Source of the DNA: Candidatus Thorarchaeota archaeon | GTDB taxonomy: Archaea > Asgardarchaeota > Thorarchaeia > Thorarchaeales > Thorarchaeaceae | Direction of reading: 5' to 3' | Length of the DNA: 64,000 nucleotides | NCBI GenBank assembly: GCA_048882045.1 | Contig: JBHLRZ010000004.1 | Location: 46,373 to 110,372, forward strand | Part shown: piece by piece, positions 11,192 through 28,249 of the stretch | Numbering within the stretch: position 1 is the stretch's first letter | How the letters are laid out: every line of letters begins with the position of its first letter | Position numbers and translations under genes: made by a program | The notes under the pieces: generated by a model | The model's database searches: none | Told to the model about the DNA's origin: nothing | What the model saw: the letters and a program-made list of their open reading frames with translations, nothing else

Positions 11192-12949
11192 GTGCTTTAT
11201 GAGACTTTGACCCAAGCCTACAACGACATTGAGAAAACAGCTGGTACTCTGGACAAGATCGAGTTGTTCTCAGAACTTCTCTCGAAGGCGAATCCAGATG
11301 AGGTAGGACTCATCATTGCTCTTACGATGGGGAAGCTTCATCCTGACTGGAAGAGTCAGCCTGAGATTGGAATTGCTGAGAAAACTGCTGTTCAGGTAGT
11401 TGCATCTGCAGCTTCAGTTTCAGAAAGGGATGTCCAGAAGATACTCCTCAAGACCGGAGACATCGGGAGTACAGCAGAGGAGCTATTGCAGGAGAGTGCT
11501 CAATCAACATTGTTCTCAGAGGATGTGACGATTTCTTTCGTCTATGAAACGTTAGACCAGACCTCAAAGATCTCTGGATCTGGGAGCAACAAGATGAAGA
11601 TAGCGACCCTAGTTGGCCTTCTGACCGATGCTAATCCTATTGAGGCTCGATACATCCTTCGAACGGTGACAGGCTCTCTCAGGCTTGGTCTTGGAGATAT
11701 GGGAATTATTGACGCACTTGCTACAGCCTTTACTGGAAGTCGAGACGCTCGAGGTGAAATCGAGAATGCCTTTAATGTATGCAGTGACTTGAGTCACGTT
11801 GCTTCTGTTCTGGCGAAGGATGGAATAGATGCTGTAAAGGCCATCAAGACTGAAGTAGGAGTCCCCATTCGAATGATGGCAGCCAAGAAGCTGTCAACTC
11901 CTGAAGAAATCATTGAGAAAGCTGGTGGCAAAGCTCTCGTCGAGAATAAGTATGATGGGGAACGTGTTCAAGTCCATAAGAACGGTGATGAAGTCATTCT
12001 GTTCTCTCGAAGACAGGAGATAATCACTAGTCAATACCCTGATGTAGTTGAACTTGTAAGGGAGCATATTCAAGCCCAGACGAGTGTTTTGGAGGGAGAA
12101 TGCGTTGCTATAGACCCTGAAACAGGAAGGATGAAACCGTTTCAGGAACTGATGCGACGGCGACGCAAGACGGATATTGAAACGACACAAGAGGAAGTTC
12201 CTGTTTCAATCTTCTTCTTCGACATTCTTTACAATGATGGAGAAGATGTCACCTCATTGCCCATGCTCAAGAGACGTGAGCTTATGGAGAAGATTATCAA
12301 AACAAGTGACAGAGTGAATCTGACAACTGCAGAACTGACGGATGACCCTGAACGACTTCAAGAGATATTCGAGGATGCAATTGGGACAGGTCACGAAGGT
12401 GTGATTGCCAAAGCAGTCCACAAGGATGCCACATATCAGGCAGGTTCTAGGAGCTGGCTTTGGATCAAGCTGAAGGCATCCTACACCGAGGGTCTCGCTG
12501 ACTCTCTTGACCTTGTACTTGTTGGAGCCTTTCATGGTCGTGGGAAACGGGCTGGACTCTATGGTGCATTCCTGGCTTCAGTCTACGATCCTAATAATGG
12601 GACATTCCCGACTGTTTGCAAGATAGGTACAGGATTTTCTGACGACATGCTTGTCGAGTTCAAAGAACGTCTCGATGAGTACAAAATCAAAGTCCGTCAT
12701 TCTAAGGTCATCTCTGAAATGGAGGCTGACGTGTGGTTCGAACCGCTGAAGGTCATCGAGGTTCTCGGTGATGAGATTACGAAGAGTCAAGCACATCCCG
12801 CAGCAAGGAACTACCTCAAGGACAGTGGTCTTGCGATCCGCTTTCCACGCTTTACTGGCAACTGGCGCGATGACAAGAGTCCAGAACAGGCAACGTCAGT
12901 TGATGACCTTATTGAAGCCTTTGAATTGCAGAGGGGAGAGAACCAATAG
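11192..12949 (+). CDS. lig: ATP-dependent DNA ligase, archaeal type
   Basis: KYDGER adenylation motif, EGVIAK, WIKLK, GTGFSD, IRFPRF. Confidence 0.96.
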   Translation: MLYETLTQAYNDIEKTAGTLDKIELFSELLSKANPDEVGLIIALTMGKLHPDWKSQPEIGIAEKTAVQVVASAASVSERDVQKILLKTGDIGSTAEELLQESAQSTLFSEDVTISFVYETLDQTSKISGSGSNKMKIATLVGLLTDANPIEARYILRTVTGSLRLGLGDMGIIDALATAFTGSRDARGEIENAFNVCSDLSHVASVLAKDGIDAVKAIKTEVGVPIRMMAAKKLSTPEEIIEKAGGKALVENKYDGERVQVHKNGDEVILFSRRQEIITSQYPDVVELVREHIQAQTSVLEGECVAIDPETGRMKPFQELMRRRRKTDIETTQEEVPVSIFFFDILYNDGEDVTSLPMLKRRELMEKIIKTSDRVNLTTAELTDDPERLQEIFEDAIGTGHEGVIAKAVHKDATYQAGSRSWLWIKLKASYTEGLADSLDLVLVGAFHGRGKRAGLYGAFLASVYDPNNGTFPTVCKIGTGFSDDMLVEFKERLDEYKIKVRHSKVISEMEADVWFEPLKVIEVLGDEITKSQAHPAARNYLKDSGLAIRFPRFTGNWRDDKSPEQATSVDDLIEAFELQRGENQ

Positions 12950-13011
12950 GATCATTCCGACAGTTTTACATGCATCTTGTTTCGTGGGAATTCAGTACAT
13001 GGAGGAATTCT

Positions 13012-13464
13012 ATGCATAGTGTACGAGTAAAAGACCAAAGGATGCATTTCAGTGCATCACACTTTCTCAAAAGTGAAGATGATATAGAAAACCTTCATGG
13101 CCACAACTACATCCTGACTGTCAAACTCACAGGTCCTCTGAATGAAGATGGAATGGTCTACGACTTCCGAGAGGTCAAGTCGAAATCTCTAGAAATCTGC
13201 GCGACCTTAGACCACAAGGTTCTCCTTCCAGGAAAGTCTGAAACAATCAAGGTAACCAAGTCCGAGGAATTCATAGAGGTATTCGTGGGTGAGAAACGGT
13301 ATGTCTTCCCTGAGGAGGACTGCGTGGTAATTCCAACAATCGCCACATCTACCGAGCTGCTTGCTCAACACATCTCTGAGCTTCTCGATTTTCCAGAGAA
13401 GTTCACAGTGAAGGTCTGTGTTAGTGAGAGTGAAGGCAAGACTGGCTGCTATAGACGTAAATGA
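13012..13464 (+). CDS. 6-pyruvoyl-tetrahydropterin synthase family protein with ExxHGH (PTPS-III-like) signature
   Basis: HFSASH, ENLHGHNY, DF, LDH, ESE motifs; SD GGAGG 13001-13005 supports ATG 13012. Confidence 0.85.
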   Translation: MHSVRVKDQRMHFSASHFLKSEDDIENLHGHNYILTVKLTGPLNEDGMVYDFREVKSKSLEICATLDHKVLLPGKSETIKVTKSEEFIEVFVGEKRYVFPEEDCVVIPTIATSTELLAQHISELLDFPEKFTVKVCVSESEGKTGCYRRK

Positions 13465-13492
13465 CAATCCTGACAAACGAGAGGCGTAAAAC

Positions 13493-14305
13493 GTGGTCAT
13501 TGACACTCAAAATGAAGAACCAAAACACAGAATCCAACTAAGCAAGGTGGGAGTGAAGAACCTCAAGACCTTCATGATTACTGAACGAAGCGGTCTAAGA
13601 CATCACATCCTGCCAAAAGTTGACATCACAATTGACCTCCCAGCGGACCTAAAGGGGGTTCATATGTCCCGACTTGTTGAGTCGATGACCGAGGAACTGA
13701 GTGACCAATTCCGAGTACACTCATCCATTGAGCATATCCAGATGCGGATTCTTGAAGGTCTCCTGAAGAAGCACAGTTTCAAGCGTGGCGAGGTCAAGTT
13801 TGAATTTGAGTTTGGCTATGAAAGTCGCACTCCTGTATCCAGAAAAAGAACTTGGGAAGTGTGTGATGTCGTCGCGATAACAACAATGGAACAAGGAAAA
13901 CCGTTCCTGCATGATATTGAGATCAGAGTCATAGGCAACACTGCCTGTCCTCACTGCATGGCAAACAATGATGGTCTTACACACATCCAACGAGCCTATG
14001 GAAAATTGAGAGTTGTGGGCGAAGTGGATGAAATTCCAAACTATGGGACTATGATAGAGATAATTGAGAAATCCTTCTCAAGCAAAACATATTCTCTTCT
14101 GAAACTTGAAGACGAGGTGCATGTTACAAAAGAGATGCACGACAACCCGCTGCTTGTCGAAGATGTCTGTCGGAACATTCTCCAGCATGCTAGAGAGATG
14201 TATCAAGACCGCGATCTAGAGATGTTTGCAGAAGCACACTCCATGGAGAGTATTCATAAACATGATGTGATAGCCCAAGGCAGGATTGTTTCCAATGGTG
14301 AATAG
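13493..14305 (+). CDS. folE2: GTP cyclohydrolase, FolE2/MptA family
   Basis: KGVHMSR, TPVS, TACPHC, HIQR, NPLLVED, ESIHKHD motifs. Confidence 0.88.
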   Translation: MVIDTQNEEPKHRIQLSKVGVKNLKTFMITERSGLRHHILPKVDITIDLPADLKGVHMSRLVESMTEELSDQFRVHSSIEHIQMRILEGLLKKHSFKRGEVKFEFEFGYESRTPVSRKRTWEVCDVVAITTMEQGKPFLHDIEIRVIGNTACPHCMANNDGLTHIQRAYGKLRVVGEVDEIPNYGTMIEIIEKSFSSKTYSLLKLEDEVHVTKEMHDNPLLVEDVCRNILQHAREMYQDRDLEMFAEAHSMESIHKHDVIAQGRIVSNGE

Positions 14306-14338: not shown

Positions 14339-17300
14339 TTGGATATTTTGGTCTACTACAATAGCACGAATGGATGTTATTGGATGTGGATTAGCAAGGT
14401 TCAGTGCTTGAGTGTATTTCTTATGTTCCTCATAGTACTGCCCGCAGTAGCTATACTAGGACCGCTCTCCATAGAAAGAGTCCAATCCACTGAAGATCCT
14501 AAATCATTAGTTTCTCAAGAAAGTGAAATACAGGTTTCTCCAGACCAAGCCTTGCAGGATGTCGGGTCACTTTCAGAAACATTCGAGTCTATACCTTCAT
14601 CTGGAGAGATCGATCCAATTCCTATTGAACAGACAGGATACTCGGTGACTGGCAATGTATCAGCCCGAACAGACACAATGCAAAACACAGCGAATTCCTT
14701 AGAGATTGATTCGCTTCATGACTGGGTTGCCAGCGAGACAAACGCTACGGTGACAAACCTCAAGAGGCTTTATATCGTCAATGGGTCTCTTGACGAGGGT
14801 CTTCCAGGAGTAAATGTAAATCCTAATGGCTCTGTTTCATCATATCCCTATGGATGGACCTCTGACAGCTACTCTTCTGACGCGAACACAATTCAGAGGA
14901 GCGAGTATATTCAAGGACAGAACAGCTTCGTTGGTCTTGAGAATGAAGGCGATCCTACAGGTACAGGTGCAAACACAAGGTTTCAACATGGCATCAATAC
15001 CAGAATTAGCTGGGCTCAGACGATTGATAACCGACCCTATACTGAAGATTTTGTTTTCAGCCTTCGATTTCTCTATCTTAATGGACCATTGGATAGCTCC
15101 CTAGGTGATAGTATTTCTCTAGAGGTTTGGATGAATGGCACTCGATATTGGAACCAGAGTCTGGCACAAGTTGGCTCTAGAGATATTTGGTATTCATCTG
15201 GTGTTGTGAACATCAGTCTAGCTGGAGCACCTAATACTTTCGAATTTGATGTTCGTCTAGCAATAAATACAGCTCTGGATCTTTATCCGACGGAATATGG
15301 TTTTCTTGATTCAAATTATCTTACGGTACTGATTGACGATATTGATCTTATCGGGCAAACACCTCCAACATCTGAACAAGTGAATATGATATTTAATGCA
15401 GGAGGTGCAAGTGCGGCTGTCACTGATTCAATAGGTTATGGAACTTGTATCATCTCAAATAGCTCATATTGGTCTAGTTCAAGTCTTCAGATCTCATTTG
15501 ACTCCAACTCAACCATTAGTTTCGATTATAATGTAAAATTGTTGAATCATCGGTTCATCTATTCGAGCTCAACAACGGACACTTTAGACCTTGGAGTAGC
15601 CTATGAAATCGAATCCGGCAATAGTGGCAATCTTGAGATTTACACCTATCTTGGATACTCTGGTATCTATGAGGACCTAGTACTGAAAATCTTCCATCCA
15701 AGTGATTGGGAAAATTTCACGGTGTATGATCCCTTCTTGAGCGATGTATCATCTAGCTGCACCTTTAGTAGCAATGTTCTGACTATCCCCGAGTTTCTCC
15801 TTGATCGTCTAGGATGGTGGAAAGTCGCGTGCGATACGCCAAACTATGCATATTCCGCTGAAGTAGAAAGATATGATGCAGGAATCCCAGCTTGGACAAA
15901 TGAGAGTATCTTCCATAGTTTTGATTCAGCACGTCTTTCAGTATCCATAGGAACTGCTTTCGAAACTCCTGTCATATCAGATCCTGTCAACTATACATGG
16001 GCATTTCCAAATAGCACTGTTTGGTCAGAATCATCATCATCTGGAGGACTTGGTTTAGCTAGCAGTTCACCCGTAATCTTCGGCCAAACAAACACGACCG
16101 CAGGAATTTGGGTAGTCTGTTATTTATGGTCGAATGGAACTGAGCTGGCATATCATTGCTACAAATTTGCATTACATCATACGGCAGAATTGCAACTTGT
16201 TTTCTCAGATAGTCTATCCACTGTAGTAGGTCAACCAGTAACAGTGGTGTTAAGGTTCTTTGATAATGAAACAGGTAAATATCTCGTGAATGATGGCGCT
16301 TCTATTGTTGGACATTGGGATGGTCCAGATGTATTATTCACAGCAGATATCGTCAACAATTGGTGGCAGGCAGATTTTGAAACCACCTTCGTTGGAGCAG
16401 GTGATTTTACGGTCAGCCTTGTTTCCGCAGCACCTTACTATGAAACTGATCTTTATGAGATTACAATCCATTCTCAATTCCTAACCTCTCTAGTTCCGCC
16501 GGTAGGTCCCTTGACACCTCTTACATATGGAAGGGAGTATTCCTATGACTTCTTCTACTCAATGTCCTACAATGGTACAGGCATTGAAGGTGCAACTGTG
16601 GAGATAACAGAGGAAGGATCTGAGTGGGCTACAGTATCTGATGTCGGTGGTGGTCATTACAACCTTACACTAATTCCATTAGCCTCTCGTGACTATAGTA
16701 TTCGGATCAGATTCTCTAAAGTCGGGTTTGAGAACCAGACTCATGTTCTCTCATTCTTGGTCAATGATGTTCATATTGAGGTTGATTCGATATCTGCACT
16801 TTCTGGACCTGAATATGCACCTCTCACAATTAATGTGCATATAGTTGAGTCGGACACTCGGAATCCAGTCACTGGGGCAAATGTGACATTAGCGGTATTT
16901 CTCCCTGGTGATTACCTTGTTCACGATACTACGATGAATGAGACAACCCCGGGTACATACTCTACCACAATCATAATGTTTGATTCCACATCTGGACCTT
17001 ATACTGTAAAGATATCTGTTGATAAAGAAAATCACGAGTTGATTCAGTCTTTCAGCTCAACATTAGTCCCAACATTTGACTTCGCATCACGCATGTTTCG
17101 GTATGCAGTAACTTACCCTCGAGAAATTCTGATTCTAGCAATTTTCATCATAGGTGCAGTGGTTGGACAGAGGGTTCGACGAAGAAGACATAGAGAAAGT
17201 CGTGCAACTGCATTGGCTTTCAAGAACAGAATCAATGACGCAAACAATATACTCGGATTTTTGGTCCTTCACAAACTCAGTGGTGTGCCCATCTACTCTA

Positions 17301-17875
17301 AGGTATTCAAAGGTGGCTTTGAGGAAGGAATGATTTCAGCCTTCATCACTGCAATCATGCATTTCCGGGAGGGATTTGAAACAGGTGGCAAATCTGATAC
17401 ATTCACCCTCATTCCTCTATCAGAAGTCATTAGAATCGTACCTACACAGAATCTCATCTGTGCCTTCATAACTGTCACGCCTCCCTCTTTTGAACAAGAG
17501 CGCAAAATGATCAGTTACGCCCGTGCTATTGGCATGATGTTCGATGATACTCTCTCTCAACCGAGTGGAGAGGTAATTGATGCAAAGACTAGCAAGACCT
17601 TCGAATGGATGCTTGATGATATCCTAGATACGTTACTCATCAGAGACTATCAAAACGGTGTGAAAAAGTATCCCAGACCGCTTCGTTTCATTGAGAAAGC
17701 TATTCCAATTGAGGAAAGAGAAGGAAGGTTCAATCTCTACCGACTAGTTCGCTTACTGACCTCGACCACAGATTCTGAATATGTTGTTTACAATAGAGTA
17801 TTCGAAGCTCTAGAAGGTGAGTATATTCTACCAATCTATCCATATGACAGAAACGATTTAGCGGAATCCGGCTGA
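14339..17875 (+). CDS. Large type I membrane protein, paralog 1 (signal peptide, beta-rich ectodomain, TM, cytoplasmic longin-like plus winged-helix-like tail); likely start ATG 14384
   Basis: Hydrophobic leader, many NxS/T sequons, TM then RVRRRRHR, HKLSGVPIYSK...ISAFITAIMHF. Confidence 0.85.
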   Translation: MDILVYYNSTNGCYWMWISKVQCLSVFLMFLIVLPAVAILGPLSIERVQSTEDPKSLVSQESEIQVSPDQALQDVGSLSETFESIPSSGEIDPIPIEQTGYSVTGNVSARTDTMQNTANSLEIDSLHDWVASETNATVTNLKRLYIVNGSLDEGLPGVNVNPNGSVSSYPYGWTSDSYSSDANTIQRSEYIQGQNSFVGLENEGDPTGTGANTRFQHGINTRISWAQTIDNRPYTEDFVFSLRFLYLNGPLDSSLGDSISLEVWMNGTRYWNQSLAQVGSRDIWYSSGVVNISLAGAPNTFEFDVRLAINTALDLYPTEYGFLDSNYLTVLIDDIDLIGQTPPTSEQVNMIFNAGGASAAVTDSIGYGTCIISNSSYWSSSSLQISFDSNSTISFDYNVKLLNHRFIYSSSTTDTLDLGVAYEIESGNSGNLEIYTYLGYSGIYEDLVLKIFHPSDWENFTVYDPFLSDVSSSCTFSSNVLTIPEFLLDRLGWWKVACDTPNYAYSAEVERYDAGIPAWTNESIFHSFDSARLSVSIGTAFETPVISDPVNYTWAFPNSTVWSESSSSGGLGLASSSPVIFGQTNTTAGIWVVCYLWSNGTELAYHCYKFALHHTAELQLVFSDSLSTVVGQPVTVVLRFFDNETGKYLVNDGASIVGHWDGPDVLFTADIVNNWWQADFETTFVGAGDFTVSLVSAAPYYETDLYEITIHSQFLTSLVPPVGPLTPLTYGREYSYDFFYSMSYNGTGIEGATVEITEEGSEWATVSDVGGGHYNLTLIPLASRDYSIRIRFSKVGFENQTHVLSFLVNDVHIEVDSISALSGPEYAPLTINVHIVESDTRNPVTGANVTLAVFLPGDYLVHDTTMNETTPGTYSTTIIMFDSTSGPYTVKISVDKENHELIQSFSSTLVPTFDFASRMFRYAVTYPREILILAIFIIGAVVGQRVRRRRHRESRATALAFKNRINDANNILGFLVLHKLSGVPIYSKVFKGGFEEGMISAFITAIMHFREGFETGGKSDTFTLIPLSEVIRIVPTQNLICAFITVTPPSFEQERKMISYARAIGMMFDDTLSQPSGEVIDAKTSKTFEWMLDDILDTLLIRDYQNGVKKYPRPLRFIEKAIPIEEREGRFNLYRLVRLLTSTTDSEYVVYNRVFEALEGEYILPIYPYDRNDLAESG

Positions 17876-17948
17876 CACTTCATTTAATGGCTTAGCCGAC
17901 GATTTTTCATTATATTGATAATACGAATTATAGTTATAACGTGCAAAC

Positions 17949-20900
17949 ATGTGGCTTCTTCTCAGACTTGAGGTTAAAGACTTGAAGAGGAGTGGATGCT
18001 TATTTGTAGCTGTCATCCTTTTTCTAGTCTGTACTATTAATGCTCCATTTGATTCCAGAGGAGGAACGCTCTCGGAACAATCCGAGTATGAAAGTGTTTC
18101 TGCCCTTGAGAAAAATGGGTCCAACATCCTCTCCAACGACCATCAACTCTCAGGAACCCTTAATCCAGTAGTGATTGAACAGAGGGGGAATAGGACCAAC
18201 CCCGTACTTCATGCGGAAACAGATTCAAAAACAAATGTGAAAACGAATTTGTCAATTGATATTGCAAACAACTGGGTGGGAAGTCGCGCCTCTGTTGAAC
18301 TTTGGAATCTTGAGCGATTATACGTTGTTAACGGAAGTTTCTCTGAAGGACTTGAGGGTACTAATTCCAATCCATCAGGATCTGTTCCATTCCATCCATT
18401 TGGTTGGGATGCAATCAGTGGTAGTCCTGATCCAAATATGGAAATGACGGCTGATTACGTATTACAAGAGGTCTATGTTGGTATCATCGGAGAAAGAGAT
18501 GGTACAATCCACAAGTATACCAATGGGAGTTATGCCTACTGGATACAGACCGTCAACAATACGCCTTACTTAGAGGATTTCATTCTCAATTTTGATTACA
18601 GCTATGAACGAGGTCCGGTTGATAATCCTAATGTGACACTCAGAGTATACATTGATGATAATCTGGTGTGGACCACCACCTCTGTAGGTCTTATTGATAA
18701 TGAGTGGTACAACACTGGAGATGTCGCAATCAATTTGAATGGTATTGGTGGTCAGTTCAACTTCAAGATTGGATTGTACATTGATGGCAATACGACTCAC
18801 GACAAAAGGGACATCCAGTTCATTGTTGACAATGTTAAGTTCGTTGGTGAAACACCACCCTCATTTGATGAGGCAGTCATGACCCTAAATATTAGTCTGG
18901 ATTCTGCTGTAATTACTGGCACAAGTTTTGGAGTGGCAAATATCACAAATGACCCTCCATGGCAAACTGAGAATGTGCTTGTTGAGATATCTTCTGAACT
19001 TGGCTATTCATTTGACTACAGAGCTATACTATTGAGCCATCGTTACATCAACTCATCAAGAACTACAACTCTTCTGGAAGATGGAGTCCATTTCACATCT
19101 CTTCGCAATGAGAATCCATTGCTTGAGTTCTACACCTTTGTTGGTGTGTTGCCTGACCTAGATGATTTCACATTGATCATAAGCACTCCAACGGACTGGG
19201 AGAATGCTACAGTCTATAATGCGTATGGTACTCCAGTCACTGCATCATGTATTGTCAAGCAAGGTAGCATCACCATTCCAAACTCATTACTTTCCACACT
19301 AGGATGGTGGGAGGTTCACATGTACTCCCCAAACTACCTTCATACATTGCAGACTCTAAAACTCAATGAACTCTCATCTACCTGGGTTCCAGATTCAGTA
19401 TTCAGAACCGCAAACATCACAAAGCCTATGGTAACGATTGGTGACGAATCACCAACATCAAGCACTCTTGAGAATGTCAACATAACTTGGTTGACACCAG
19501 ATGGAGAACCTTGGTTCTCTGAGTTGATGAGTGGTGGGTCAAGTGGTATAATCAATGGCAGTCAATTGGAGTTTGGGCCATTAAACGCAACCGCTGGAAG
19601 TTGGAGTGTGTATGTAACTTGGACAAATGGAACTGAACTAGCATATGGTAGTATATCTTTCGAGGTTCATCATGGCACAGCATTGCTTCCACATGAGGAG
19701 ACTATTGAAACTGAGAGTGGTTTAATCATTTCCAATTTCGTTTATTTCCGGGACTCGGAGAACAACGAATTCATTACAGACCCTACTGCATCGGTCACTG
19801 CAAATTGGTCCGCATCAATAATTGCCTTCGTACCTGACCCGATTCAGAATAGGTGGGTAGGAACCTTTGACACATCACTTGTTGGACCTGGTACTCATCT
19901 TGTGGTTGTCAATGCCAGTCGACCATTCTTTGACGACATATCTTGCACATTCAATGTGACAATTAACTTTGCAGATAATGAACTCACCATTGATAATCCA
20001 TCTGGAACGATAGGTATTGACGACACATATCTAGCCACGTTCACCTATTCAGATGCTATTGGAGTTGGTATTCCTGGAGCAAATGTAAGTATTGACTTCA
20101 CTGGTCCAGCAGGTGGTATCACATGGAGTAAACCAAATGATCTCGGGAGCGGTGACTACTCCATGGAATTTACTGCAGTGCATTCCGGGCAATATGTCAT
20201 TACGATAACTGCCAATAAGAGCAACTATGAACCGAGCGGAGATGCACTCTTCATCATTGTTCGTGAAAGGACAACATTTCTAAATCTTGAAAACGGAAGT
20301 TCTGCAATCATAAGCTATGGTGGTCAATATAGATTAGTAGTTCAATATACGAATGGTACTGGACATGGACTCGATGGAGCAAATGTTATTGTGCATAGTA
20401 CAAATCCAGAAACTGAAATTGGTTACACGAATTCAACAAATGAAGGAAACGGTTACTACTCATTCACTCTGACACCTCAAGATATCGGGACATGGACCAT
20501 CGTAATCAAGGCGTCATTACAGGATTATCAAGATAATGTGACTTCTTTCACACTGACTGCAACAGCAATTGCAACACAACTTCGAATTGTTGGTACGTCG
20601 TCTCCCTCTTCTGTTGGAGTCGAACATTCGTTTGATCTGCTGGTTTTCTATGAAACTTTTGAGAGTTCTCCTGCAAACATAAGCATGGCTGACATAAGAT
20701 TGAATTTCACAAGTTTTGGAAGATTAGATTACAGTACCTCTCGCATTTCTCTTGGGTCTGATGGTTACCTTATCACTATCAATGCAAGTCGAATAGGTAG
20801 CTACGAATTCACCATCTACATGAATAAGACAGGATATCAGAGCGATTTTGAGTCGTTCACACTCTTTGTTGTAGCCAGAGGAATGAAGGTGATAATGGAC

Positions 20901-22013
20901 GCTCCTGTCTGGACTCGATTGAGTCCTTTGGATATCTCTCTTCAACTACAAGAATCAGATACTAATGATTCAATAACCGGAGCAATCGTAACTTTTTGGC
21001 TCATGAAGTCAGGTGGAATCGTGATGGAGGGTAACTTGACTGAGAGCTCACCTGGAGTCTACACTGTTTCATTTCTGCCACAATGGATCGAAGATGCTGG
21101 ATACTCGATTCGTATCCTCGCGGAAAAGGACAATTTCGGCCTAGATGATGTTTACCAATACCAAGTTCTTCAATATACTCCTCCAGAGATTCTTTGGCAA
21201 ATTATGGTGGCTGTATATGGTCCTCCAATTGTGGTCGTTGCAGTTGTTGGTGTGGTTTCTTTGTCCGGACGTGTAGTCTACAAGCGAAGGAAAAGAAAAG
21301 AGTTTGCCACATTCATAGAAAACCAGCGTCGCTTCAATGATACTGACAATATTATTGGTGTTATTGTCATGCACAAGAAGAGTGGAATCCCAATCTACTC
21401 TCGAATAGTGAAAGGAGGATTTGAGGAGGGAATAGTTGCTGCTTTCATATCCGCGGTCACTACTTTCCGAGATGAGTTCGAGATGCTAGATGAGGAATCC
21501 ATGAGAGTCATCCCCATTTCAGACATCATACGCGCAGTCCAGACTCCCAACCTCATCTGTGCATTCATTACAGTCCGCTCCGCATCCATGGAGCATAACA
21601 GGAAAATTGAAGCCTTTTCCAAAGAAACCAGTAAATATCTAGATGACTTCTACATGGAGTCCAAACCACCTTCAACATTGGATCCAAGAATTGCAGAGAT
21701 AATCAATTATCTGTTTGATGAAACGATGGATGGTGTACTCCTCAAGTATCACAAGCTAGGTGGCAAAAGAATACCAAAACGGTATGAGCCCATTGAGCAA
21801 GTCCTGAATGATGAAGAATACCATCATTGTGCAAGACCAGTCAATCTCGCAAGAGCTCTATCAAAATATGGTGTTCCTGAGGCACGCGGATGTACTCTCG
21901 TGAGTGAGGCTATTGAGAAAGAACTCATAGTCCTCTGTGATGAGGAAGAATTCCCAGAGTCTGATTTTGACCTGCAGTCATTTCTTAATAAAAGCGCGAA
22001 GTCTGAAGAGTAG
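17949..22013 (+). CDS. Large type I membrane protein, paralog 2; likely start TTG 17982
   Basis: Same conserved blocks as neighbours (LYVVNGSF, DWEN, LGWW, WTNGTE, SGIPIYSR); SD GAGGT 17970-17974. Confidence 0.87.
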   Translation: MWLLLRLEVKDLKRSGCLFVAVILFLVCTINAPFDSRGGTLSEQSEYESVSALEKNGSNILSNDHQLSGTLNPVVIEQRGNRTNPVLHAETDSKTNVKTNLSIDIANNWVGSRASVELWNLERLYVVNGSFSEGLEGTNSNPSGSVPFHPFGWDAISGSPDPNMEMTADYVLQEVYVGIIGERDGTIHKYTNGSYAYWIQTVNNTPYLEDFILNFDYSYERGPVDNPNVTLRVYIDDNLVWTTTSVGLIDNEWYNTGDVAINLNGIGGQFNFKIGLYIDGNTTHDKRDIQFIVDNVKFVGETPPSFDEAVMTLNISLDSAVITGTSFGVANITNDPPWQTENVLVEISSELGYSFDYRAILLSHRYINSSRTTTLLEDGVHFTSLRNENPLLEFYTFVGVLPDLDDFTLIISTPTDWENATVYNAYGTPVTASCIVKQGSITIPNSLLSTLGWWEVHMYSPNYLHTLQTLKLNELSSTWVPDSVFRTANITKPMVTIGDESPTSSTLENVNITWLTPDGEPWFSELMSGGSSGIINGSQLEFGPLNATAGSWSVYVTWTNGTELAYGSISFEVHHGTALLPHEETIETESGLIISNFVYFRDSENNEFITDPTASVTANWSASIIAFVPDPIQNRWVGTFDTSLVGPGTHLVVVNASRPFFDDISCTFNVTINFADNELTIDNPSGTIGIDDTYLATFTYSDAIGVGIPGANVSIDFTGPAGGITWSKPNDLGSGDYSMEFTAVHSGQYVITITANKSNYEPSGDALFIIVRERTTFLNLENGSSAIISYGGQYRLVVQYTNGTGHGLDGANVIVHSTNPETEIGYTNSTNEGNGYYSFTLTPQDIGTWTIVIKASLQDYQDNVTSFTLTATAIATQLRIVGTSSPSSVGVEHSFDLLVFYETFESSPANISMADIRLNFTSFGRLDYSTSRISLGSDGYLITINASRIGSYEFTIYMNKTGYQSDFESFTLFVVARGMKVIMDAPVWTRLSPLDISLQLQESDTNDSITGAIVTFWLMKSGGIVMEGNLTESSPGVYTVSFLPQWIEDAGYSIRILAEKDNFGLDDVYQYQVLQYTPPEILWQIMVAVYGPPIVVVAVVGVVSLSGRVVYKRRKRKEFATFIENQRRFNDTDNIIGVIVMHKKSGIPIYSRIVKGGFEEGIVAAFISAVTTFRDEFEMLDEESMRVIPISDIIRAVQTPNLICAFITVRSASMEHNRKIEAFSKETSKYLDDFYMESKPPSTLDPRIAEIINYLFDETMDGVLLKYHKLGGKRIPKRYEPIEQVLNDEEYHHCARPVNLARALSKYGVPEARGCTLVSEAIEKELIVLCDEEEFPESDFDLQSFLNKSAKSEE

Positions 22014-22120
22014 GTTCTTGAAACCTTCATTGAAGACATCTTGAATTCAATACAACGCAAACATAATTAATAGAACATCAAGACTTAACTTAACTCAGTC
22101 TTCCGCTTGATGAGGCATAG

Positions 22121-25100
22121 GTGATGAGGGACATGAGAAAATTCCCATCTTCAATAATTCTACTCTTAATGCTATCCATTCCAATGATTTGGGTGCCTAC
22201 CGTACCTGTGGTTTCCACTATCAATTCAAATCGAGATACTAGTGCTACTTCATCACCTCTAGAATTAAATCAAAATGATCAGGACCCATATGAACTACAA
22301 TCAGCTCCCGTGGATAACCTCCACATTCTCTCTGATGCTGCTCCAGCAGATGGAATTCTCGATCCGCTACAGGTCGAACAATCTGGGTATGTTGCATCAG
22401 ATAACATCTCGGCACGAACGGATAGCTACCAGAATCTAGATTATGCCCTACCACTTGATGTGGGTCATAGTTGGATTGGAGATGTTGCCGAGGTTTCTTT
22501 ATGGAACCTTGAGAAACTCTATGTCGTCAACGGAAGCTTTAACCTTGGCACTCCTGGCACAAATGTCAATCCTACCGGTTCTGTGACCTATCACCCGTTG
22601 GGGTGGGATTCGAACAGCACAGATACTGCGACATACGATGATGATCTTCAACTTTCGGCATACGATAATACCGGTCGACAATATGTCATGGTTGAAAGCC
22701 AAGGGGGAAAGGTGGGTCAGAATGAACATGGACATGTTGCAGGAACCAGAATTGTATGGACTCAGACTGTTCAGAATGCTCCCTATACTGAAGATTTCTT
22801 ACTCAATTTTGATTACTTCTATTTGAGAGGACCTCTAGACAACGGAGGGGCCCCAATAACCGGTAATTGTAGCCTAAAGATTTGGATAAATGGTGCTCCT
22901 GTGTGGAATATGAGTCTTCTAACTGTTGGTCAGAGGGGTGTATGGACTGATGTAGGAGTCATCCCAATCACTGTTACCGGTGCTCCAAGTTCTTTCCTCT
23001 TTGAGATTGGTCTTGAAATAGATCAGACTCTTGTTCTAGACAAGCGGGATGATTATGACAATAATGGCATTGATGATGGCATTGGCAACGCTGCCTACAT
23101 CACAGCGTTCTTAGATGACATCTCGTTCTTGAAGGCAACTCCTCCGACTCCCGACCAAGTGGAACTCCAGTTCACAACTGGAGGATTGACAGCAGATCTA
23201 ACTGGGTCATCGGGTTCATACAGCGCATCAATTACCAATTCGTCTTATTGGGATGCTACTCCTGTTCTTGTATCTCTGACTTCCAATACGAGTGTGTCCT
23301 TTGATTATAAAACTCGCCTCTATGCTCACAGATTTACGGACTCAAATTGGAGGACTGAGGTTTCAAGTCCTGGTGTTGCTTACATTGTTGATCACGGTGT
23401 CAGCTCCGATCTGATAATGTACACATATGTTGGATATCTCGGTGACTATGAAGATTCCGAGATGATGATTGTCTTCCCTGATGACTGGGAGAATCTCACT
23501 ATCTCTGATCCATTCCTGACAGACTTGACCAGTTCATGTACTGTTGGAACTGGTTATCTTATTGTTCCTACTTCAATCATTGATAGTCCCGGATGGTGGC
23601 AAGTCAAACTCAAATCTCCCAACTACGCAAAGACACTCAAGACTCAGGTTCTTGATGGCTCTTGGACTGATGAGATGATATTCCGAATCGACGACTCGAT
23701 CCGAGCTGATATTACTATTGGCACTGACACTCAGACTCTTGGTTTGCTAACCAATGTCAACATAACTTGGTTCAAACCATCTGATACCATCTGGGTTTCT
23801 GAAGTTCTTCCTCCCGGAGGGACCTCGGGACAAATCTATAGCACACCTCGAGTCTTGACATCTGGTTCTTCCCCAGCTGGAGCTTGGTGGGTTGAGGTGT
23901 ACTGGACTAATGGGACAGAGGTGGCATATGATCGGGTCGGTTTCGATGTAGACCACACCTCGAATCTAGTGGGTGATCCTACCGAAATCAGTACTAATGC
24001 TGGCCTGACCATTAAAGGACTAGTTCGTTATACTGATGGGGATACAAATGACCCCATACTGGACGCTTCTGCTACTGTGGAAGGAAACTGGTCTGGAAGT
24101 GTTGTTACCTTTGTGCCAAATCCTGTTCAAAACTGGTGGGAGGCGGATTTCGATACTACCATCGTTGGAGCTGGGGACTTTGTCATAGTAGTGAATGCTT
24201 CGCGGCCTTACTATGATGATGTCAGCTGTCAAATAACTGTTCACTCGATCAATGTGACAAGACTATCATCACCAAATGCACCATGGGCTGCTGCTGAATG
24301 GGGAAGTCTTGTTTCATTAACCTTCAATTATGAGTCATATCATTATGCATCCTCCTCATGGGGGCCAGTGAACAACAATTCCGATGTTTCGGTTAATGTC
24401 AACTGGACAGCTGGATATTGGTCAGTAACAGAAGACATCGTTCCTGGCATCTACAAAATTGACCTTAACACAAACATTGTTGCAGCTGGTACATGGCTGC
24501 TCAATGTTTCATTCAGCAAGCCATATCACGAATCCAAGACTATCTTACTCACTTTGATTCTGTCCCCGATGACTAGTTCACTAACAGTCTTGGGTAATCT
24601 GTCTGAAAGAGTAGATATTGAGGAATCAACTTCTGTAAAAGTTCAGTATAGCTTCAGCAATGGAACTCCAATATCTGGTGCGAACGTTATAGTAGGCGAT
24701 GTATCGCCTGCGAGTGGTTTGAGTCTGACCGTTGTAACTGAGGTTGGAGGCGAACCTGGCAACTATTCTGTGATCCTAACCCCGTATGCCGCTACTGTTT
24801 ACACAATACGATTTGTGGCGACTGGTGATTACTCTGAACCAGCAAGCACGGTCTTTGTCTTGGTTGTAAATGATGTCGAAACTGCTCTATCGATTTATGG
24901 GGATTCGAGCGTGGAGATAGGACTCTCTGAGACTTACAATACGACGTTCCGGTACAACATGATCAACGGTACCGGTGTTGCAAGTGCAGCCATCGACATC
25001 GTTTACTCAGGACCCGTTGGAATGCTCAGATGGAACCTTAGTGATTCTGGATTTGGTAACTATAGTATACAGTTGGAAGCATCGCTCCCCGGAACATATC

Positions 25101-27490
25101 TGATTACGATAGCTGCTTTCAAACAATACCACCAGAGTTCATCGAATTCATTTTTCCTAACGATTAGAAACATTCCGACAAATCTGACTCTACCTGAGGT
25201 AAGCGTTGAAATCGGACTTACTGACTCATATGATATGCTCGTTACTTACGAAATGCTAAATGGAACGGGTATTGAGGGAGCTGTAATAGATGTCATTGCC
25301 CCAGCTTCTGTAAACTCATTAGTCACTCCATTAGGACTGGGTAGCTATAAAATTGAGTTCGGCTCAACAATGTCTGGATCTTTCCTCGTGACAATAGCAG
25401 CATCAAAACAATACCATCAAAGTAGTTCTGAAACCTTTTTCCTCATCGTCCGTGAGATTTCAACTAACATCACCTCCCTCAATGGTACATCTGGTCAAGT
25501 CGGATTTGGAAAAAGCTTTGATTTCTTACTAGAATACACGAACTCCTCCGGGTTTGGTCTGGATGGGGCAAATGTGAGCGTTTTCAGTGTCATCCCTGAA
25601 ATTGGACTGACTTGGGACACGGCCATTCCTCACGGATCTGGTGTCTATTCAATCTTGTTCACGCCAATAGAAGCCAATACATACAATATTGTCATTAATG
25701 CATCATATGACAATCATCGAACCCAATTCCTCTCGTTCGTTCTGATAACCACTCCAATAGCCACGACCCTGAGTCTTCTCAATACTAGTGCTTCAATCTC
25801 CTTTGACCAGGACTTTACAGTTTACATGTTGTACCAGGATGAGGATAACAACCATTTGGAAAACTCGACAATCACAGTACAGGAGATATCAGGTGTTGAG
25901 GTAGCTCCGTTTGAAGAACTAGGTGCTGGGCTATACAGGGTCACAATCAATCCTATAGATCTTGGAATTTTCGATGTGATATTCAAGGCAAGCAAGCCTG
26001 GATACCAGAACGATTCTGTGAGCTTCACTCTTGGCTCTACTAGAATTCCTACAAGTCTAAGAATTGCTAGTGGACTTTCGTCAGATTCAGTGAGATTTTC
26101 AGAAGACTATCAGTTCACTCTATTCTACGAGCGAACTGACACTGATGTGAATGTTTCTTCAGCAACCATTGATGTCCAAGGCGTTCCAAATAGCGGCTTT
26201 TCTTGGTCATATGAAGAATCTGGTGATGGGTATATTGTTACAATCACTCCTGAATATGTGAATACATGGAGATTTACTATTTCAGCACAGCTTGCAGGTT
26301 ATGCAAGTAGAGAACTTGATTTCATCCTCACAGCAGAACCAATTCAGATTCACGCTGAGATGTTGTCAAATCTGTTTGCTGTTGAGGGTGAGAGCTTCAA
26401 TATCAGAGTTAATCTAACTGAAGAGGGAACCAACACTCCCGTCACAGGGGCTCTCGTATACTTTAGACTTACACCTGCTGGAATAACGGGTGCAGGAGAT
26501 CTTCACGAGATGGTGGAAACGGCGACACCTGGAATATATTCAGCATTCTACAGTATTCCACTCTATCTTGACACCACTCAATACACATTGGAAATAAAGG
26601 TCAACAAAGACAACTATGAGCTTCCTGGAGAGTACTTTGTCCAGTCCTTTGCGAAGTACAACGACCTGGTGGTTAGGGTAACCCCATTCATATCAGTTGG
26701 TGCTGTTTCTCTTATTGGACTTGTCAGTCTAGTGACTGCTATGCGTTTTAGGTCAAAGAGACGAAAAGCTCAGATGGATATTGATCTGGCAAACAAACGT
26801 CGTTTTGATGATGCTGACAACATCATCGGCGTGATTGTCATGCACAAGACTAGTGGTATACCAATCTACTCCCGAATAGTCAAGGGAGGATTTGAAGAGG
26901 GGATAGTTGCAGCTTTCATCTCTGCAGTGACATCTTTCCGAGAAGAGTTTGATGCGATTGAGGTCGAGTCAATGACCGTAATCCCGATTTCTGACATTAT
27001 CCGTGCAGTCCAGACACGAAATCTGATCTGCGCATTCATTACGCTTCAATCTGCTTCTATTGAACACAACAGAAAGATGGAATCTTTCGGACAACAGGTC
27101 TCAACCTATCTTGATGACTTCTACACCGAGGCCAGACCTCATTCAATGGTCGATCCTCGAATAGGGGAGGTTTTAGACTATGTCTTTGATGAAACAATGG
27201 ACGGAAAATTGATCAAGTTCTACAAGGCAGCAGACGATGCATCATTCCCACGACGACTTCGGTTACTTGAGCAACTTCTTGTAGATATCGATACACGTCA
27301 TTGCGCCAGACCAGTTCGACTGGCAAAAGGTGTGGCTACATACGGTGTTCCAGAGTCACATGGTTGTACACTCGTACTTGATGCGATAGAAAAGCGTCTC
27401 ATCGAGCCATGTGCCGACGATGATCCCACGGTGGAGGATATAGATTTCAAAGACTTCTTCAGACACAAGAATAGTGAAAGCGCCGAATAG
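22121..27490 (+). CDS. Large type I membrane protein, paralog 3, with about 7 Ig-like stalk repeats; likely start ATG 22133
   Basis: Same head and tail blocks; ~95-aa repeats with NGTG(I/V/L)xGA and GxGxY...GxYxIxIxAxK pattern. Confidence 0.87.
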   Translation: MMRDMRKFPSSIILLLMLSIPMIWVPTVPVVSTINSNRDTSATSSPLELNQNDQDPYELQSAPVDNLHILSDAAPADGILDPLQVEQSGYVASDNISARTDSYQNLDYALPLDVGHSWIGDVAEVSLWNLEKLYVVNGSFNLGTPGTNVNPTGSVTYHPLGWDSNSTDTATYDDDLQLSAYDNTGRQYVMVESQGGKVGQNEHGHVAGTRIVWTQTVQNAPYTEDFLLNFDYFYLRGPLDNGGAPITGNCSLKIWINGAPVWNMSLLTVGQRGVWTDVGVIPITVTGAPSSFLFEIGLEIDQTLVLDKRDDYDNNGIDDGIGNAAYITAFLDDISFLKATPPTPDQVELQFTTGGLTADLTGSSGSYSASITNSSYWDATPVLVSLTSNTSVSFDYKTRLYAHRFTDSNWRTEVSSPGVAYIVDHGVSSDLIMYTYVGYLGDYEDSEMMIVFPDDWENLTISDPFLTDLTSSCTVGTGYLIVPTSIIDSPGWWQVKLKSPNYAKTLKTQVLDGSWTDEMIFRIDDSIRADITIGTDTQTLGLLTNVNITWFKPSDTIWVSEVLPPGGTSGQIYSTPRVLTSGSSPAGAWWVEVYWTNGTEVAYDRVGFDVDHTSNLVGDPTEISTNAGLTIKGLVRYTDGDTNDPILDASATVEGNWSGSVVTFVPNPVQNWWEADFDTTIVGAGDFVIVVNASRPYYDDVSCQITVHSINVTRLSSPNAPWAAAEWGSLVSLTFNYESYHYASSSWGPVNNNSDVSVNVNWTAGYWSVTEDIVPGIYKIDLNTNIVAAGTWLLNVSFSKPYHESKTILLTLILSPMTSSLTVLGNLSERVDIEESTSVKVQYSFSNGTPISGANVIVGDVSPASGLSLTVVTEVGGEPGNYSVILTPYAATVYTIRFVATGDYSEPASTVFVLVVNDVETALSIYGDSSVEIGLSETYNTTFRYNMINGTGVASAAIDIVYSGPVGMLRWNLSDSGFGNYSIQLEASLPGTYLITIAAFKQYHQSSSNSFFLTIRNIPTNLTLPEVSVEIGLTDSYDMLVTYEMLNGTGIEGAVIDVIAPASVNSLVTPLGLGSYKIEFGSTMSGSFLVTIAASKQYHQSSSETFFLIVREISTNITSLNGTSGQVGFGKSFDFLLEYTNSSGFGLDGANVSVFSVIPEIGLTWDTAIPHGSGVYSILFTPIEANTYNIVINASYDNHRTQFLSFVLITTPIATTLSLLNTSASISFDQDFTVYMLYQDEDNNHLENSTITVQEISGVEVAPFEELGAGLYRVTINPIDLGIFDVIFKASKPGYQNDSVSFTLGSTRIPTSLRIASGLSSDSVRFSEDYQFTLFYERTDTDVNVSSATIDVQGVPNSGFSWSYEESGDGYIVTITPEYVNTWRFTISAQLAGYASRELDFILTAEPIQIHAEMLSNLFAVEGESFNIRVNLTEEGTNTPVTGALVYFRLTPAGITGAGDLHEMVETATPGIYSAFYSIPLYLDTTQYTLEIKVNKDNYELPGEYFVQSFAKYNDLVVRVTPFISVGAVSLIGLVSLVTAMRFRSKRRKAQMDIDLANKRRFDDADNIIGVIVMHKTSGIPIYSRIVKGGFEEGIVAAFISAVTSFREEFDAIEVESMTVIPISDIIRAVQTRNLICAFITLQSASIEHNRKMESFGQQVSTYLDDFYTEARPHSMVDPRIGEVLDYVFDETMDGKLIKFYKAADDASFPRRLRLLEQLLVDIDTRHCARPVRLAKGVATYGVPESHGCTLVLDAIEKRLIEPCADDDPTVEDIDFKDFFRHKNSESAE

Positions 27491-27565: not shown

Positions 27566-28249
27566 ATGAGTCCGGGATTTCTGAGTGACAGACGAGCAGT
27601 TATCGCAATCATCATCGGTGCGATTTTGGCACTTGTGGCTTACTTCGTCATCAAGCCAATCGACACCACGATTTCGTATGTTGTCTTTGGCGTTGCGGCC
27701 CTGCTCTTCGTATATGCATGCATAATGGATGTGGCCGACGAGTTCGAAACACCTGAAAAACCAAAGCCGAAACCAAGGGCTGTTCCTGAACCCGAGTCCG
27801 AAGAAGAGGAACATGCTGAAGAATATGTTCCTGCTGTTGAGGCCCCTGCAGCTAAACTCTCCAAACTTCCCATTGAAACAATCGAGGGGATTGGAGAGAT
27901 CTATGGAAAAGAGTTGAAGGCTGCAGGCATTGCTACGGTCGCTGACCTCATGGTTGCAGATGTAGACAAGGTGGCTGAAGTTACAGACGTTAACAAGGCA
28001 CAGGCTGAGAGATGGATAGCGATGAGTCGCTTCGCATGGCTCGATGAGGTTTCTGAGGAAGACGCAGAAGCAATCGTATTTGCTACTGGGATCTCAGACC
28101 TGAAGTCGCTTGCTGGAGCATCTGCGGATGATATCTACGAAAAGATTCAGACCGCTCTTGACGAGGGTGACGTCCGTGTCCCTGCTGGCTATAAGTTCAG
28201 CAAACATCAAATTCAGACCTGGATCGATGCCGCAAAGAGATTGACCTAG
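27566..28249 (+). CDS. Membrane-anchored helix-hairpin-helix protein (DUF4332-like)
   Basis: Two N-terminal TMs, Pro/Glu linker, IETIEGIGEIYGKELKAAGIATVADL HhH and a second degenerate repeat. Confidence 0.78.
   Translation: MSPGFLSDRRAVIAIIIGAILALVAYFVIKPIDTTISYVVFGVAALLFVYACIMDVADEFETPEKPKPKPRAVPEPESEEEEHAEEYVPAVEAPAAKLSKLPIETIEGIGEIYGKELKAAGIATVADLMVADVDKVAEVTDVNKAQAERWIAMSRFAWLDEVSEEDAEAIVFATGISDLKSLAGASADDIYEKIQTALDEGDVRVPAGYKFSKHQIQTWIDAAKRLT

Follow-up and report, generated by a model that had tools for sequence, protein, structure and literature searches.

Tandem surface glycoproteins of a Thorarchaeota archaeon with a predicted longin-fold domain in their cytoplasmic tails

The stretch of DNA analysed here, 64,000 nucleotides long and referred to as the window, belongs to Candidatus Thorarchaeota archaeon (GCA_048882045.1, contig JBHLRZ010000004.1, positions 46,373-110,372 of the forward strand; all coordinates below are those of the window). 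It contains three tandem open reading frames (ORFs), paralogs 1, 2 and 3, whose products fit the plan of type-I surface glycoproteins with a tail predicted to be cytoplasmic. A longin fold of this tail is well supported by structure modelling, and the best overall explanation, to which we would give an even chance, is that the tail serves as a docking platform anchored in the membrane. The genes and their putative transmembrane (TM) segments, located by a Kyte-Doolittle scan, are the following:

14339-17875, plus strand: paralog 1, 1178 aa; signal/anchor, head of ~600 aa, 3 Ig-like repeats, TM segment and predicted longin-winged-helix tail
17949-22013, plus strand: paralog 2, 1354 aa; plan as in paralog 1, with 5 Ig-like repeats
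22121-27490, plus strand: paralog 3, 1789 aa; plan as in paralog 1, with 9 Ig-like repeats
17105-17170, plus strand: TM segment of paralog 1
21201-21269, plus strand: TM segment of paralog 2
26666-26743, plus strand: TM segment of paralog 3

Each ORF consists of an N-terminal hydrophobic signal or anchor segment, a sequon-rich ectodomain, one later TM segment, a polybasic run and a tail of ~235 aa; in paralog 1, a methionine 15 codons downstream of the ORF start may be the real start. The second hydrophobic segment, which spans approximately aa 923-944, 1085-1107 and 1516-1541 in paralogs 1, 2 and 3, respectively, is directly followed by RVRRRRHR, RVVYKRRKRK and RFRSKRRK, and the numbers of NxS/T sequons are 22, 32 and 35 before it and 0, 2 and 0 after it. 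The tail is placed in the cytoplasm on the basis of the positive-inside rule and this asymmetry of the sequons. The first-pass annotation of this region, made from the sequence alone, had described three tandem receptor-like proteins of this build with a cytoplasmic tail, a description with which our analysis agrees; the motifs that it quoted (NIIGVIVMHKxSGIPIYSR, EEGIVAAFISAVTxF, VIPISDIIRAVQTxNLICAFIT and AIEKxLI) were all found in paralogs 2 and 3, and its boundaries of the tails differ from ours by a few codons at most.

The tail is the best-conserved part of these proteins, as already noted in the first-pass annotation, and is under strong purifying selection. In the first 100 aligned columns of the tail, paralogs 2 and 3 share 80% identity, versus 25-47% in well-populated windows of the ectodomain. 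Over the first 104 tail codons, the proportion of nonsynonymous differences (pN) is 0.12 and that of synonymous differences (pS) 0.72, so the two tails differ, as had also been noted, mainly at synonymous sites (the corresponding rate dN is 0.13, while dS is saturated). Paralog 1 is more distant, with 50-52% identity in the same region. In an alignment of 62 homologous tails (alignment A2), 25 columns are invariant and cluster in the b1-b2 hairpin, helix a1 and strands b3-b5 of the predicted fold; R75 is invariant and R96 nearly so, and one of the two might correspond to the catalytic arginine finger of GTPase-activating longins.

Between the TM segment and the C-terminal part, the tail comprises a basic helix and the domain with the predicted longin fold:

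17168-17245, plus strand: polybasic juxtamembrane helix of paralog 1; the first 34 tail residues have a net charge of +7
21270-21347, plus strand: polybasic juxtamembrane helix of paralog 2; net charge +5, ends in the invariant RRF-D--N
26741-26818, plus strand: polybasic juxtamembrane helix of paralog 3; net charge +5
17246-17632, plus strand: predicted longin-fold domain of paralog 1, aa 970-1098, by alignment to paralog 2
21348-21734, plus strand: predicted longin-fold domain of paralog 2, aa 1134-1262, bb-a-bbb-a-a, from the AlphaFold2 model and structure matches
26819-27205, plus strand: predicted longin-fold domain of paralog 3, aa 1567-1695, by alignment

The tail was modelled with AlphaFold2 from residues 1100-1354 of paralog 2 and the A2 alignment, with a predicted local distance difference test score (pLDDT) of 80.1 and a predicted template-modelling score (pTM) of 0.76. 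Secondary structure elements assigned to the model by DSSP (E36-43, E49-54, H61-78, E88-90, E95-99, E103-109, H115-132 and H147-160) follow each other in the order bb-a-bbb-a-a. A long helix (2-34) runs on from the TM segment and lies outside the range 35-163 that is aligned in the best matches, and the domain itself, with the order b1-b2-a1-b3-b4-b5-a2-a3, has no N-terminal helix within it, as expected of a longin. The model was compared with known structures by Foldseek, by rescoring of the Foldseek list and by a Foldseek-independent search of 48,161 chains. The top Z scores were those of Bet5/TRAPPC1 in TRAPPIII (7kmt_K, 12.8 over 122 aa at 3.0 Å), sedlin (2j3w_A, 12.5) and Sec22b (1ifq_B, 11.8). 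The rescored list held 140 chains with Z of at least 8, and all of its top 50 rows were longin-type. Over residues ~35-163, the independent search returned sedlin (Z 12.5), AP-3 sigma (11.3), TRAPP, Sec22, VAMP7, Lst4, SRX and the Lokiarchaeota longin 8yqg (9.6), and a Foldseek probability of 1.00 was given to AP sigma, Sec22b, TRAPP and Gtr1. Roadblock chains (MglB, LAMTOR, MglC, 3kye and Asgard roadblock proteins) ranked below the longins, with Z 7.5-8.5 over residues 31-138 only; the roadblock order a-b-b-a-b-b-b(-a) comprises a helix N-terminal to the sheet and packed against it, and no more than one C-terminal helix, of which the tail has two. A longin/roadblock fold had been proposed in the first-pass annotation, with HHpred, or AlphaFold plus Foldseek, as the way to check it, and the model supports the longin.

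The remaining part of the tail was predicted to form a small separate unit, followed in paralogs 2 and 3 by an acidic extension:

17639-17848, plus strand: C-terminal winged-helix-like unit of paralog 1; divergent, without the HC...GC cysteines
21741-21950, plus strand: C-terminal winged-helix-like unit of paralog 2; strand, three helices, strand; ends AIEKELI
27212-27424, plus strand: C-terminal winged-helix-like unit of paralog 3
21951-22010, plus strand: acidic C-terminal extension of paralog 2; conserved D-h-D-L-x-x-F-L, low pLDDT
27425-27484, plus strand: acidic C-terminal extension of paralog 3; conserved FxDxF-like motif, here DIDFKDFF

The last ~70 residues, folded alone (A3), gave a pLDDT of 75.6 and the elements E10-12, H19-29, H39-49, H53-65 and E69-71. 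A C-terminal helix-turn-helix (HTH) had been suggested for this part, and the suggestion stands insofar as winged-helix domains dominate the matches (SAMD1, MecI, KAT6A, the MCM C-terminus, RPA32, Fur, MarR and RiPP-recognition elements), but their Z scores of 4.2-6.3, most of them 4.2-5.8, are under the chance level of the tool, and Foldseek found no match for the unit at E ≤ 0.001. The assignment as a winged helix is plausible but weak. The third helix, at the recognition position, has a mean net charge of -2.6 that is never positive, and the winged-helix core is approximately neutral (mean -0.7). Since the third helix is acidic, DNA binding is unlikely, and the unit, if it is a winged helix, would be a protein-binding one. 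A cysteine pair, H-C ... G-C, occurs in the unit of paralogs 2 and 3 and of most of their orthologues, with a third cysteine just behind the unit; the type represented by paralog 1 (P1) is without these cysteines, which might have a metal or redox role. The ends of the proteins are type-specific as well. The P1 type (~1180 aa) ends with I-L-P-x-Y-P/S-F/Y-N followed by acidic residues, and the P2 and P3 types end with C-E-E-H-E, a short gap and D-h-D/E-F/L-x-x-F-F/L, FxDxF being present in most P3-type sequences. In eukaryotes, FxDxF binds adaptin appendages; a search of the genome with the adaptin-ear model PF02883 gave no match, but the control matched nowhere either, which makes this result uninformative.

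For the family of proteins with this tail, neither a Pfam nor an NCBIfam model exists. When 1.84 billion representative proteins were searched exhaustively with a profile, only 199 were returned at E ≤ 0.001, with the module at the C-terminus in the full-length members; the source names of the close homologues are Thorarchaeota, Sifarchaeia and Promethearchaeota. Five full copies are encoded in the genome, namely the trio, a copy on contig 35 and another on contig 23. A further 300 genomes of the phylum were sampled; of these, 76 belong to the same archaeal family, and 65 of the 76 had a match at E ≤ 1e-10, and the other Asgard families gave one strong match (1.6e-42, family f12), the rest being near 1e-11. 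The ORFs with the weaker matches (~760-2300 aa) have a sequon-rich ectodomain, a TM segment, P-R/K-K-R-R-K, a helix and h-h-h-H-K-x-S/T-G-h-x-h-Y/F, and end in A-I-E-x-L-I-x-x-K-h-I-x-P. In hhalign comparison with A2, six of seven tails from other Asgard families reached a probability of 91-97% and the seventh 78%, with three of the seven matches spanning positions ~10-234. The ectodomains above the module differ across Asgard lineages (Big_1, MG2, Laminin_G_3). Thus, a module of TM segment, predicted longin-fold domain and winged-helix-like unit is common to Asgard lineages under differing ectodomains. Among these large membrane proteins of other Asgard families (loci L012-L018, genomes G008, G065, G207 and G089), those of L015 and L017 have additional helical or winged-helix-like extensions after the module. 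In a quick tree, the ~1180-aa type formed its own clade (support by the Shimodaira-Hasegawa-like approximate likelihood ratio test, SH-aLRT, 97), and the ~1350-aa and ~1700-1800-aa types came together in a second one (99), from which an old paralogy, not a recent duplication, can be deduced for the trio.

Domains related to that of the tail were also seen in proteins of other architecture. Two weaker relatives are encoded in the same genome. A soluble protein of 306 aa encoded on contig 15 (L006:1450-2370, plus strand) is homologous to the longin domain of the tail in its first ~130 aa (hhalign probability 95%) and shares the motifs T-G-I-P-L-F and F-I-S-A-I-x-x-F; a Ras-like GTPase gene is located ~7 kb from it on the same contig. 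A 622-aa TPR protein on contig 3 (L007:34-1902, plus strand) carries a related C-terminal longin-like domain (S-G-L-P-I-Y ... F-I-S-A-I-T-A-F). An Atlas feature search with the tail produced leads only (scores 0.79-0.88); these were hypothetical proteins of archaea, short in length and in some cases with HTH_47 or TrmB.

For the docking platform, the following arrangement may be proposed. Outside the cell, stalks of 3, 5 or 9 Ig-like repeats would hold the homologous heads of ~600 aa at three different heights, and inside, the basic helix after the TM segment probably lies on the inner leaflet and is followed by the longin-fold domain and the small winged-helix-like domain. The tail is probably dimeric, as is usual for longin and roadblock domains, and might recruit a soluble partner in the cytoplasm or regulate it. 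The most plausible partner is a GTPase of the Ras superfamily, of which the genome encodes roughly 20-30 (33 Ras-family matches, ~20 of them strong). The winged-helix-like unit, presumably not DNA-binding, and the paralog-specific C-terminal motifs might serve as further protein-binding sites, and the binding or clustering of ligands outside may alter what assembles at the membrane's inner face. Dimers of longin and roadblock domains are platforms for GTPases (PMC3747258), and Asgard archaea possess many longins (PMC10933270). The first-pass annotation had taken the proteins for receptors that couple surface binding to the regulation of GTPases, possibly as heterodimers; its interpretation is supported in part, and both the coupling and the heterodimers are kept here as inferences.

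Several points weigh against this explanation. Longin-family membership is unsupported by sequence, because the tails matched no Pfam family at E ≤ 10, Longin, Sedlin_N, Sybindin, Clat_adaptor_s and SRX included, and no NCBIfam family, and no longin was found in a PDB profile search; among the 62 homologues there was a single stray Fuz_longin_1 match (E 0.17). The fold is predicted, not solved, and the structural matches do not favour GTPase-regulating longins over those of SNAREs or coats. Many longins, like those of SNAREs and of the small subunits of AP and COPI complexes, do not act on GTPases. The conserved neighbours of the trio are housekeeping genes, none of which hints at a function, and the 33 Ras-family matches are all on contigs other than those of the five paralogs. 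The missing gene linkage is, however, weak evidence, since in Asgard archaea the genes of GTPases do not, as a rule, share operons with those of longin or roadblock proteins (PMC10933270).

In a bolder reading, which seems unlikely, the proteins would be prokaryotic outside-in receptors with a membrane-anchored longin-winged-helix platform, instead of a kinase, that recruits or switches small GTPases at the plasma membrane, and the acidic P3-type FxDxF-like and P1-type ILP-x-Y-P-F-N motifs would recruit different adaptor-like partners. If true, this would make them forerunners of the eukaryotic logic of cargo receptors, adaptors and GTPases at the membrane.

Asgard archaea have dozens of small GTPases as well as longin and roadblock proteins, and the GTPases mostly lack lipid anchors. 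A longin module on the inner end of a surface glycoprotein would be a testable membrane address to which GTPases or other partners could be brought in response to the outside and, if it does act in this way, longin platforms at membranes predate the organelles of eukaryotes.

Another explanation, possible though somewhat doubtful, is that the proteins are structural surface or adhesion components of a non-crystalline, glycoprotein-rich envelope, and that the tail only anchors, sorts or assembles them, for example via the cytoskeleton or membrane-shaping proteins, without any signal or GTPases. The large ectodomains rich in Ig-like repeats and the graded stalks would suit such a role, as would the presence of several paralogs per genome, the syntenic housekeeping locus with a copy number of 1-3 and the lack of a signalling gene nearby; longins of SNAREs and coat subunits, which are not GTPase regulators, are among the closest folds, and in cultured Lokiarchaeia numerous surface proteins take the place of an S-layer (PMC9834061). 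For anchoring, however, the TM segment and the polybasic stretch would suffice, and it is the tail, not the ectodomain, that is most constrained. Moreover, the same tail occurs under very different Asgard ectodomains, and therefore a common intracellular interaction suits the data better than passive anchoring. Even if the tail were only a module for anchoring or assembly, the finding would define a major class of envelope proteins in Asgard archaea that has had no annotation.

The chances are slim that the tail is a catalytic longin of the folliculin/NPRL2/SMCR8-type GTPase-activating proteins (GAPs), that is, a membrane-bound form of the Thor family 'NPRL2-like longin plus C-terminal domain' which switches off a Rag- or Arf-like GTPase. 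The available text of Liu et al. (10.1101/2020.10.19.343400) describes 'NPRL2-like longin' families in Asgard archaea, present in most Thor metagenome-assembled genomes (MAGs), which resembles the distribution found here. The chains of GATOR1 and SEA are aligned by Foldseek over ~255 columns of the tail with a probability of 0.93-0.98, but with a root-mean-square deviation (rmsd) of 14-15 Å. The invariant S-G-x-P ends the b1-b2 loop, near the GP site of GAP longins (PMC12290439), yet this motif, S-G-[IV]-P, has one residue between G and P, and the proline is lost in the paralog on contig 23 (GLS) and also absent from several relatives of the Loki type (GLS, GLN, GVC, GID). Only one winged-helix-like unit is present, not two or more, and no clear Rag GTPase was found in the genome, where the Gtr1_RagA model gave only weak cross-hits to Ras-like genes. 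The first-pass annotation had correctly described NPRL2/3 as a longin with C-terminal winged HTH repeats (PMC3747258), but a kinship of the tail with NPRL2/3 in particular, over longins in general, found no support: no match to NPR2 (PF06218) or NPR3 (PF03666) at E ≤ 10 was detected in the tails or in the whole genome, and GATOR1 (8fw5_C, Z 8.4), the FLCN complex (6nzd_H, 8.7) and C9orf72 (9.5) score lower than TRAPP, SNARE and coat longins (11-12.8, TRAPP having 12.8).

That the proteins are membrane-tethered transcription regulators, with a C-terminal winged helix that binds DNA either while at the membrane, like ToxR or CadC, or after proteolytic release, is hardly credible: DNA-binding SAMD1, MecI, KAT6A, Fur and MarR are among the top matches of the unit (Z 4.4-5.8), but these are below the chance level mentioned above, the would-be recognition helix is acidic and an acidic extension follows the unit.

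The part of the ectodomain next to the N-terminus, a head of ~600 aa, is homologous among the three paralogs (30-47% identity). It had no family match and no PDB sequence match, and its comparison with the Atlas gave only sub-threshold leads, to Big_1 clusters. Behind the head, ~100-aa Ig-like repeats, 3, 5 and 9 in paralogs 1, 2 and 3, respectively, were detected with an iterated hidden Markov model (HMM; i-Evalues down to 1e-31) and form a putative stalk:

16331-17068, plus strand: stalk of paralog 1, 3 Ig-like repeats, the first weak; iterated HMM; weak CarboxypepD_reg/Invasin_D3 matches
19743-21146, plus strand: stalk of paralog 2, 5 Ig-like repeats; iterated HMM; Big_1/Invasin_D3/Filamin below the Pfam cut-offs
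24020-26641, plus strand: stalk of paralog 3, 9 Ig-like repeats; iterated HMM

No stalk match exceeded a curated Pfam cut-off, the best being Big_1 in paralog 2 (33.6 bits versus a cut-off of 34.9) and the others lower. Stalks graded in this way would lift the three heads to different distances from the membrane.

Upstream of the array, at 11192-14305 of the window, a block of genes encodes an N6/N4 DNA methylase, rpS17e, an ATP-dependent DNA ligase (lig), a queD-like PTPS and folE2. The locus is syntenic in other Thorarchaeota (loci L008-L010), where sdhAB, the DNA methylase, rpS17e, lig, queD and folE2 are followed by the receptor genes in 1-3 copies. Directly 3' of the array, a 227-aa HHH_5/DUF4332 protein is encoded (27566-28249, plus strand); among the three other loci, only L010 has this gene after the array (L009 does not). 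Most of the window was found in five DNA sequencing runs, four of which may be its source, and a small share in a sixth; none of the runs listed is RNA.

Compared with known systems, the tail shares the order bb-a-bbb-a-a with the eukaryotic longins (Bet5/TRAPPC1, sedlin/TRAPPC2, Sec22b, VAMP7, Ykt6, AP sigma, mu-N and zeta/delta-COP), with which 110-128 residues of the model superpose at 2.3-3.3 Å (Z 10-12.8), although the identity is only 5-16% and there is no sequence family in common. In eukaryotes, these domains are either soluble or precede a C-terminal tail anchor, whereas here the predicted domain comes after the TM segment of a type-I surface glycoprotein and before a winged-helix-like unit. 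Similar to the plan predicted for the tail, NPRL2 and NPRL3 of GATOR1 (Npr2 and Npr3 of SEACIT) have a longin followed by one or more C-terminal domains of winged-helix type (PMC3747258), and the GATOR1/SEA chains 8adl_S and 9o5d_D are co-linear with it over the ~255 columns, but the superposition is poor (rmsd 14 Å, template-modelling score 0.3 in Foldseek). Unlike them, the tail has no profile match, a single winged-helix-like unit versus two or more and no strict GP motif, and it belongs to a membrane-anchored protein with a large ectodomain. The family of the tail and the NPRL2-like longin family of Liu et al. may be the same; the available text of that paper does not mention a transmembrane receptor form (10.1101/2020.10.19.343400).

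A longin or roadblock module held at the membrane is also known from SRX of SR-alpha, bound to SR-beta, and from Ragulator (LAMTOR1-5) with the Rag GTPases. SRX (5ck3, 1nrj) matched the tail model with Z 8.4-9.4 and LAMTOR/MP1-p14 with Z 7.5-7.9. SRX is anchored by SR-beta and Ragulator by the lipidated LAMTOR1, while the tail would be anchored by a TM segment of its own; neither of the two systems has an ectodomain, and for the tail, GTPase binding is only proposed. The structures of Asgard proteins, from the same phylum and of the same fold class (Lokiarchaeota Roadblock-Longin 8yqg and 8yqk, LokiRag 9m28 and 8yl2, and MK-D1 Roadblock3 9jue), gave Z 7.9-9.7; these solved longin and roadblock proteins are soluble or fused to a GTPase, and none of them is the tail of a surface protein. 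Full-text literature searches returned no paper on surface proteins with cytoplasmic longin tails. Longin proteins as such were already known in Asgard archaea, and what would be new here is an Asgard longin protein in a receptor-anchored form.

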